Origin: Beijerinckiaceae bacterium
GTDB taxonomy: Bacteria; Pseudomonadota; Alphaproteobacteria; Rhizobiales; Beijerinckiaceae
Direction of reading: 5' to 3'
NCBI GenBank assembly: GCA_004298435.1
Contig: SCSF01000072.1
Span: forward strand, 3,271 to 67,270
DNA: 64,000 bases
Below, piece by piece: positions 27,440-27,884 of this stretch. The stretch's first letter is position 1. Each line of letters opens with the position of its first letter. Both the position numbers and the translations under genes were made by a program. The notes under the pieces are model-generated. The model saw only the letters and a list, made by a program, of their open reading frames with translations, made no database searches and had not been told where the DNA came from.

Positions 27440-27516
27440 TGGCGCGCCCGACACGATTCGAACGTGTGGCCTCCACCTTCGGAGGGTGGCGCTCTATCCA
27501 GCTGAGCTACGGGCGC
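27440..27516 (-). tRNA. tRNA-Arg(CCG), complete, with encoded CCA
   Basis: GCGCCCGTAGCTCAGCTGGATAGAGCGCCACCCTCCGAAGGTGGAGGCCACACGTTCGAATCGTGTCGGGCGCGCCA folds into a full cloverleaf. Confidence 0.97.
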
Positions 27517-27525
27517 ATCTCTCAT

Positions 27526-27555
27526 TGCCTAGTCCGACCAACCTCTGGAGGTCAA
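27526..27555 (-). promoter_or_regulatory. Putative promoter of the complete tRNA-Arg
   Basis: TTGACC-N18-TAGGCA ending 9 nt before the mature 5' end. Confidence 0.5.
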
Positions 27556-27777
27556 CGGATTTGGACACCTTCAATCGAGCCTTTCGATCCAAACGCATGT
27601 CGTGATGTGCTGGTGCATCCTACGCTACGCGCTTTTCCGCTGCCGTTCTCCGAAAGCTGCTTACGCCGTGCTTACGCGAAACATCTTCAAGAAACGGCAG
27701 CTCGTCTACAGGCTCTCAACTCATTGAAACTCGTTGCCTTCTTCCACCTCTATCCAACACAGACACACTTGACATCA

Positions 27778-27819
27778 GCCTTCGGAGGGCAGCGCTCTAT
27801 CCAGCTGAGCTACGGGTGC
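27778..27819 (-). pseudogene. 5' half of a second tRNA-Arg(CCG); probable att junction
   Basis: GCACCCGTAGCTCAGCTGGATAGAGCGCTGCCCTCCGAAGGC is followed by TGATGTCAAGTG..., with no T arm or 3' acceptor strand. Confidence 0.9.
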
Positions 27820-27855
27820 AAAGGCGGGCGGAAGCCTCACCTGGATGATGCGGCC

Positions 27856-27884
27856 GTTCTAGCCGATCCATTGCGCCTCGGCAA
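27856..27884 (-). promoter_or_regulatory. Putative host sigma70 tRNA promoter
   Basis: TTGCCG-N17-TAGAAC followed by GC-rich discriminator GGCCGC. Confidence 0.65.

Follow-up and report, generated by a model that had tools for sequence, protein, structure and literature searches.

A Trb-type integrative and conjugative element very probably substitutes for the tRNA-Arg(CCG) gene that it splits, in a design that recurs across Alphaproteobacteria

Islands that enter a tRNA gene (tDNA) at its anticodon loop ('site A' islands) were reportedly described by Williams in 2002. In the islands located by Islander, a tDNA and its cognate displaced fragment bound an island that contains a tyrosine integrase (Hudson et al. 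2015; PMC4383910). Guerrero-Bustamante and Hatfull (2024) described tRNA-dependent lysogeny in the actinobacteriophage Fionnbharth and other phages of clusters K4 and L, in which the common core of attP and attB is about 10 bp, no tRNA gene is rebuilt and viable lysogens depend on the phage tRNA (PMC10865867). The authors asked how common this phenomenon is beyond actinobacteriophages (PMC10865867). In Pasteurellaceae, integrative and conjugative elements (ICEs) of the ICEPmu1/ICEMh1/ICEHin1056 type are inserted in tRNA-Leu, with a 13-nt anticodon-loop repeat at the junctions (Beker et al. 2018; PMC6028734), and similar prophage cases were found in a survey of Sinorhizobium meliloti (PMC11476347). 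Here we analyzed a 64,000-nt stretch of DNA (the window) from a Beijerinckiaceae bacterium, in which a 42-nt piece of a tRNA-Arg(CCG) gene and a complete gene of the same type stand side by side at 27440-27884. We consider it very probable that a ~62-kb Trb-type ICE splits the single tRNA-Arg(CCG) gene of this host, leaves it unrestored and carries a complete substitute. The principle has already been published for other elements (PMC10865867, PMC6028734), and the locus is not a new mechanism.

Like the actinobacteriophages, the ICE has an arm-binding tyrosine integrase, an attB inside a host tRNA gene and paired arm-type sites around the core (PMC10865867). Unlike the phages, it is a conjugative element, its target is tRNA-Arg(CCG) in Alphaproteobacteria, and the replacement, which has the orientation of the broken gene and lies 134-326 nt downstream of it, immediately follows the P' arm sites. 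On this comparison, the locus shows three of the four defining features of tRNA-dependent integration; the fourth, the requirement for the tRNA, is experimental for the phages, whereas we infer it for the ICE. With the Pasteurellaceae ICEs the locus shares the insertion in the anticodon loop, the broken pieces at both ends and the intact copy of the same tRNA at one end (PMC6028734). It differs from them in ICE family, conjugation system, tRNA and host class, and their integrase is XerD-like (30-36 kDa); in that study the feature was described only, without a survey or an att-site anatomy. A P4-like integrase, a crossover in the 7-nt anticodon loop and a displaced fragment at the far end are shared with canonical islands (PMC4383910). 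The combination of tDNA, displaced fragment and integrase by which Islander recognizes islands is present, with an extra 5' fragment at the near end. However, the attP tRNA fragment of canonical islands rebuilds the gene at the junction, whereas here no junction tRNA is formed and a whole gene is supplied.

tRNA genes were called with ARAGORN and Rfam on the whole window, and all tRNA features described here are on the minus strand (Table 1). ARAGORN called one tRNA in the window, the complete tRNA-Arg(CCG). The fragment (GCACCCGTAGCTCAGCTGGATAGAGCGCTGCCCTCCGAAGGC) stops 3 nt beyond the anticodon loop, where the sequence goes on as TGATGTCAAG, and 261 nt separate it from the complete gene. Mismatches between the copies occur at 4/42 positions, one of them in the acceptor stem and three in the anticodon stem. 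The complete gene pairs perfectly with itself, both in the acceptor stem (GCGCCCG/CGGGCGC) and in the anticodon stem (CCACC/GGTGG). A candidate host promoter now stands ahead of the 5' fragment only. An earlier reading of this DNA, made from the sequence alone (the sequence-only reading), had described the positions, the gap, the four differences and the pairing correctly in every respect, as judged by ARAGORN, Rfam and the sequence. Its claim that the complete gene is element-borne and not a chimera was also upheld; the gene pairs with its own 5' half and its allele is foreign to the genus.

The genome is a 165-contig, 3.09-Mb draft in which the window corresponds to positions 3271-67270 of contig C34. 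When the genome was searched by BLAST with the tRNA, the displaced host tRNA 3' half (CTCCGAAGGCAGAGG...CGGGTGCGCCA) was found on contig C163 (4818..4774), where ...GGTTAAATTG is joined to CTCCGAAGGCAGAGGTCACAGGTTCGAATCCTGTCGGGTGCGCCA at the junction. This half complements the fragment, as GGCAG pairs with CTGCC and CGGGTGC with GCACCCG. About 180 nt from it, reading outwards, lies a gene for a tyrosine integrase of the P4 type (lambda/P4-type; C163:4981-6357, 458 aa) with Arm-DNA-bind_3 and Phage_integrase domains. Thus, the 3' half that the sequence-only reading had expected near an integrase was found there with the predicted sequence. The end of C163 and the start of C34 share a 120-bp overlap, and the ICE is therefore contiguous and ~62 kb long. 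When the host flanks were joined in silico, a perfect 77-nt tRNA-Arg(CCG) was obtained, and the anticodon stem, acceptor stem and discriminator of the rejoined gene are those of the standard allele of the genus.

The identity of attL and attR is limited to the 10-bp CTCCGAAGGC, and the crossover is located within CTCCGAA(G). Sites with the target stem TCGGC/GCCGA narrow the identity to CTCCGAAG. Past the core, attL reads TGATGTCAAGTGTG... and contains neither a T arm nor an acceptor arm, and no tRNA was called at attL or attR by ARAGORN or Rfam; the rebuilding seen in canonical tDNA islands is not found. It had been proposed from the sequence that the element does not restore its target, and this stands, as neither ICE junction is a tRNA and only the 10-bp core is common to the two.

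The region was matched in all 40 relatives. The 18 ICE-free relatives that were fetched each have one intact tRNA-Arg(CCG) and no fragment, and the pair of fragment and complete gene is absent from all of them. The intact gene adjoins the same DUF465 gene as in the window in most of these genomes, is ~2 kb off in several and is 43 kb off in one (G003). The stem CTGCC/GGCAG is present in all but one ICE-free relative, as well as in the window fragment and in the half on C163, and the acceptor stem GCACCC(G/A)/(C/T)GGGTGC is present in all 18. Since the relatives share the allele of the fragment, the broken gene is the genus allele and the complete gene (GCGCCCG, CCACC/GGTGG) is foreign. The sequence-only reading had treated the complete gene as a variant, and the single intact genes of the ICE-free relatives, which have the allele of the fragment, confirm that it is not the norm of the genus.

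Whole-genome ARAGORN found no second tRNA-Arg(CCG) and no tRNA-Arg(UCG) in the assembly, the completeness of which is 97.5%. With one CCG decoder and no UCG anticodon, the ICE gene is thus the only CGG decoder seen, and the genome-wide count of other CCG decoders, which the sequence-only reading had suggested as a check, came to none in the assembly. CGG accounts for 22.5% of the Arg codons in 937 long open reading frames. When two closed genomes (G031 and G041) were searched with the tRNA-Arg(CCG) query, no full-length match of ≥88% other than the element tRNA was obtained; the remaining full-length matches are ≤81% and were taken as other Arg isoacceptors.

The junction CTCCGAAGGCTGATGTCA was also found in a genome of the same genus (G015) and in the closed genome G031, which belongs to another family. 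In G031, attL and the integrase with attR, located by DNA match, are 64 kb apart. A junction scan with CTCCGAAGGCKGATGTCAAG, in which each species was represented by one genome, returned at least 119 records; site counts given here and below are among the matches listed. The groups matched were Rhodobacterales, Hyphomicrobiales, Caulobacterales (including Hyphomonadaceae), Sphingomonadales, Acetobacterales, Rhodospirillales, Parvibaculum, Kordiimonas and others. A complete same-strand tRNA-Arg(CCG) begins 134-326 nt after the core at 92/95 sites, the sites counted being those with ≥420 nt downstream, and a tRNA 5' half lies directly upstream of the core at ~100/120 sites. Stem pairing is perfect in all 87 element tRNAs for which the host 5' fragment could be recognised, and most of the host 5' fragments are intact, with 0-2 changes. 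Because fragment, spacer and complete gene recur together in at least 119 species, the layout is not a matter of chance, and the recurrence that the sequence-only reading had proposed to look for was found.

Five more genomes have the integrase and attR 33-75 kb from attL, and their halves rejoin to a valid tRNA. They are those of Methylobacterium alsaeris, Breoghania corrubedonensis, an Erythrobacter, Roseibium marinum and a Parasphingorhabdus sp., and the rejoined gene of the Methylobacterium includes a host-specific TTGCC/GGCAA pair. The integrases share 37% to 82% identity with the enzyme of the window, which indicates an old, diversified family. When a plasmid collection was searched with the att region, only generic tRNA matches were obtained.

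The spacers between core and tRNA follow one plan, which consists of the core, a C'-like GGC(K)GATGTCAAG, an A-rich stretch, an IHF-like CAANNNNTTG, two CGTAAGCA repeats and the tRNA. The C'-like site keeps a resemblance to the GGCAGAGGTCACA of the tRNA. Paired CGTAAGCA (GTAAGCA) repeats 11 nt apart are present in 91/100 spacers, and the P arm beside the integrase bears the same repeat pair. The 8-mer itself is uncommon, with only 40 copies in the genome, five of them at this locus. Spacers of different classes were observed. The short class (134-154 nt, 79 sites) has the tRNA beginning 4-15 nt past the second arm site. The long class (249-280 nt) comprises 18 sites in addition to the 261-nt spacer of the window and contains an extra block with a conserved CCGTTGACC-N17-CTAGGC ~10 nt ahead of the tRNA (18/18 long spacers, 0/79 short spacers). 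Judged by its conservation, this block can be read as a promoter of the element's own. The 79 elements with short spacers, which do not have the block, may obtain their tRNA by read-through from the captured host promoter, and the replacement would then be integration-dependent.

The explanation that we propose takes up what was observed, namely the anatomy, both junctions, the empty site in relatives, the recurrence and the sole-copy status. The integrase, through its arm-binding domain, would recombine the 10-bp core of attP with the same sequence in the host gene. As attP has no usable tRNA half, integration leaves two dead host pieces. The promoter and nt 1-42 remain at attL, and the part from the anticodon loop through CCA is found at attR, 62 kb off, beside the integrase. 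The element's own tRNA, co-oriented behind the P' arm-type sites 261 nt downstream and equipped with its own promoter-like element, would compensate for the loss. While the ICE is integrated, the element gene is the only CGG decoder seen, and excision would rebuild the host gene. The element tRNA is presumably expressed and needed for the survival of integrants. A self-contained gene would also free the element from matching a 3' half to each host 5' half, which would allow a very broad host range. When host 5' halves were combined with element 3' halves, one or more positions of the acceptor or anticodon stem failed to pair in 56/87 hybrids, and a self-contained gene would thus remove a host-range barrier, in keeping with the very wide range of hosts.

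Some points weigh against this explanation. The remaining 31/87 hybrids would still pair via G-U wobble, which counts against the host-range rationale. A second CCG decoder could conceivably sit in a gap of the 165-contig draft. In addition, the promoter assignments are putative. A strict sigma-70 scan scored no promoter for the fragment or for the complete gene, and the calls therefore rest on conservation and on resemblance to a consensus. Both the host TTGCCG...GCTAGAAC and the promoter-like block of the element resemble TTGACGS-N10-14-GCTANAWC, which we take to be the alphaproteobacterial housekeeping consensus.

We also considered whether the arrangement is a canonical one, with a complete gene that belongs to the host or is a rebuilt hybrid and a 42-nt piece that is an unrelated leftover (a decayed tandem duplicate, for instance, or a tiny remnant of another element). 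The tRNA 3' end does face the ICE, as in canonical islands, and an Islander-type search would pair the complete tRNA with the distant 3' fragment (PMC4383910). However, that distant half pairs with the fragment and not with the 5' half of the complete gene, and the allele of the genus is likewise that of the fragment. The relatives have a single gene and no fragment, arm-type integrase sites stand between the fragment and the complete gene, and the layout is kept in more than 100 species. On the grounds of allele, pairing, empty relatives, arm-site placement and conservation, the canonical arrangement was rejected, and its probability is very small indeed. Smaller still is the chance that an assembly or binning artefact of the metagenome-derived draft produced the locus. 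Although the draft consists of 165 contigs and has the two junctions on separate ones, these two contigs share 120 bp at their ends, and closed chromosomes have this layout too, namely those of G031 (ends 64 kb apart) and Parasphingorhabdus sp. DH2-15.

Two further proposals of the sequence-only reading concern the function of the arrangement. One was that the recoded anticodon stem shields the element tRNA from re-integration, either by its own integrase in cis or by incoming relatives. The skew in stem usage is compatible with such immunity: the host stem CTGCC/GGCAG is present in 4/100 element tRNAs versus 59/87 host fragments and 18/19 relatives, five different compensated stems are used, and the element stem is unlike the broken host stem at 80/87 sites. 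However, faster drift of element genes together with shared ancestry would give an equal skew, host fragments with several different stems serve as targets, and the attP C' site of the G-type subfamily (GGCGGA) matches the element's own stem GGCGG. The proposal fails at three stacked sites (L059, L108 and L129), where an element-type 5' half (CCGCC, TCGGC) is followed by a second core, a P' arm and a complete tRNA. These stacks show that the recoded tRNA of an element can act as attB; immunity is thus not general, and we regard the proposal as unlikely. The other proposal was that CGG decoding depends on the element, giving a tRNA-based addiction or stability mechanism in which the host gene is destroyed, the sole replacement is on the ICE and loss of the ICE is lethal. 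The dependence holds while the ICE is integrated, as the element tRNA is then the only CGG decoder, and a deletion of the attL-proximal 0.4 kb by a route other than excision would be lethal. The addiction does not hold, because site-specific excision rejoins the halves to a perfect host tRNA and loss of the ICE by this normal route carries no penalty. An addiction module kills or arrests cells that lose it; in silico excision restored the host tRNA gene instead. The largely intact host 5' fragments (most with 0-2 changes) fit reversible integration, and the seemingly truncated fragments at L102 and L117 are attP-like junctions and not decayed host halves. Addiction is thus improbable in our view. 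A 'ratchet', by which the ICE would be trapped through decay of the host halves, was also rejected, as L102 and L117 are P-core-P' junctions of a subfamily with an attP that shares tRNA positions 23-42.

The stacked sites belong to Paracoccus marinaquae (L059), Roseovarius conchicola (L108) and an uncultured Sphingomonadaceae (L129), and are ordered as host 5' half, P' arm, element-type tRNA 5' half, second P' arm and complete tRNA. Whether the recoding of the anticodon stem is adaptive rather than the result of drift is a separate matter. The host stem is avoided in 96/100 element tRNAs while the loop and the rest of the molecule are fixed, and CCACC is found in 14/17 members of the long/T-type lineage of the window; we hold an adaptive origin to be doubtful. 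A possible gain would be less integrase-mediated or homologous recombination among the orphaned host halves, the element tRNA and the attP core next to it. Another would be escape from a nuclease, of host or competitor origin, that reads the anticodon arm of tRNA-Arg.

Several individual sites deserve mention. In Ancylobacter dichloromethanicus VKM B-2484 (L102), the P' arm is nearly identical to that of the window over 270 nt, which suggests that a very similar ICE has recently passed between distantly related Alphaproteobacteria. The junction was also found in metagenome-assembled genomes (MAGs) labelled as Verrucomicrobiae (L065) and Phycisphaerales (L106), for which a binning error is more likely than true transfer. 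One MAG of the same genus (G016) has an intact host-type tRNA-Arg(CCG) (C2:753990-754066) as well as an attP-like integrase-P-core-P'-tRNA junction that spans the end of C2 and the start of C8. The same MAG contains a remnant of the P arm, 4.4 kb beyond which lies a 3' half, and, on a third contig, a complete attR next to an integrase (C8:4736-4919, C4:40277-41861); this arrangement may reflect a strain mixture in the MAG, or tandem or decayed elements. Mesorhizobium sediminum (G045) has three modules of core and tRNA-Arg(CCG) (C1:2347552-2347781, C4:340034-340265 and C2:147042-254010). Two of these are attP-like and come from the subfamily whose attP matches target tRNA positions 23-42.

Judged by the gene content on each side, the ICE flanks the complete tRNA at its 3' end and the fragment borders the host chromosome (Table 1). 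The GC content is ~60% on the host housekeeping side and 65-69% in the conjugation module. Pfam analysis found a relaxase, TraG, TrbB/E/L/G/I and an integrase within att bounds, as in Trb-type (MPF-T, Tn4371-like) ICEs. The Tn4371 family has the same module order, with the integrase at one end, then ParA, relaxase, TraG and TrbBCDEJLFGI, along with heavy-metal and other cargo. In Beta- and Gammaproteobacteria, elements of this family use short non-tRNA targets (TTTTTYAT-like) and are not known to carry a replacement tRNA. Unlike Tn4371 proper, the ICE targets the anticodon loop of tRNA-Arg(CCG).

Other genes of the ICE and its surroundings were also noted. A MerA-like mercuric reductase with an HMA domain is encoded at C163:18241-19929 and, together with the cargo in the window, makes the ICE rich in metal-handling genes. 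A DEAD-box helicase, an SMC/AAA_21 protein and an AAA_14/DUF4143 ATPase (C163:7648-16209) may be defence genes. The IS3 element lies 345 bp from the element tRNA, and the intervening 27095-27439 resembles a truncated gene. Next to attR, a second tyrosine integrase without an arm-binding domain (C163:3640-4773, 345 aa) starts ~100 nt downstream of the displaced tRNA 3' end, which is the classic geometry of another island at the same tRNA 3' end. A single arm-like CGTAAGCA motif is located 6 nt past the CCA of the displaced 3' half. On the host side of the window, 39588-42632 encodes a 1014-aa protein with TPR repeats, a GT41 (O-GlcNAc-transferase-like) domain and a C-terminal methyltransferase domain.

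Table 1 Coordinates of the features of the tRNA-Arg(CCG) locus, the ICE and the host flank in the window
Feature	Position	Strand	Basis
Complete ICE-borne tRNA-Arg(CCG), variant allele	27440..27516	-	ARAGORN; Rfam 67.4 bits; whole-genome ARAGORN and BLAST
Host tRNA-Arg(CCG) nt 1-42 (5' half, anticodon loop and GGC); host side of attL	27778..27819	-	Comparison with relatives; rejoins with C163:4818..4774
Common core CTCCGAAGGC of attL and attR (anticodon loop and 3 nt)	27778..27787	-	Same 10 nt at C163:4818..4809
P' arm of the ICE attachment site, 261 nt	27517..27777	-	Spacer comparison
C'-like TGATGTCAAG	27777..27768	-	Sequence
IHF-like CAATGAGTTG	27726..27717	-	Sequence
Two arm-type repeats CGTAAGCA	27676..27669, 27665..27658	-	Sequence; spacer conservation
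Promoter-like TTGACC-N17-CTAGGC	27555..27527	-	18/18 long-class spacers
Candidate host tRNA promoter TTGCCG-N17-TAGAAC (GCTAGAAC at 27863..27856)	27856..27884	-	Sequence; kept in congener G015
ICE part within the window; runs left through C34:1 into C163 and ends at integrase and attR	1..27787		Contig overlap, integrase domains, GC shift
ICE conjugation module: ParA, DUF2840, S26 peptidase (TraF-like), SLT, relaxase (DUF3363 and MobA/VirD2), TraG, TrbB, TrbE, TrbL, TrbG, TrbI	217..17433	+	Pfam
ICE cargo: LysR regulator, DsbD-like membrane protein, MFS transporter, heavy-metal P-type ATPase	17660..24132	-	Pfam
IS3-family insertion sequence in the ICE (orfA 25941-26231, orfB 26228-27094)	25941..27094	+	Pfam HTH_Tnp_1, rve
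Host chromosome flank: DUF465, saccharopine dehydrogenase, cation efflux, FabI/FabB/FabA, PurK, others	27788..39072		Pfam; DUF465 upstream of intact tRNA in relatives

Textbook tRNA-targeting islands rebuild their target, and the exception of a broken gene with a spare was shown experimentally only in 2024, in mycobacteriophages (PMC10865867). What the present locus adds is scale, as a major ICE lineage uses this design across Alphaproteobacteria, in at least 119 species and many orders. It also adds a resolved and highly conserved att architecture, in which the spare gene immediately follows the P' arm and has the orphaned host promoter upstream, and an as yet unexplained avoidance of the host anticodon stem. 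Island finders that pair tRNA genes with fragments would misplace the left boundary (~350 bp short), miss the design and take the element tRNA for one of the host's. Vectors for integration that are based on such integrases would have to include the tRNA. The sole CGG decoder of these genomes has been acquired horizontally.

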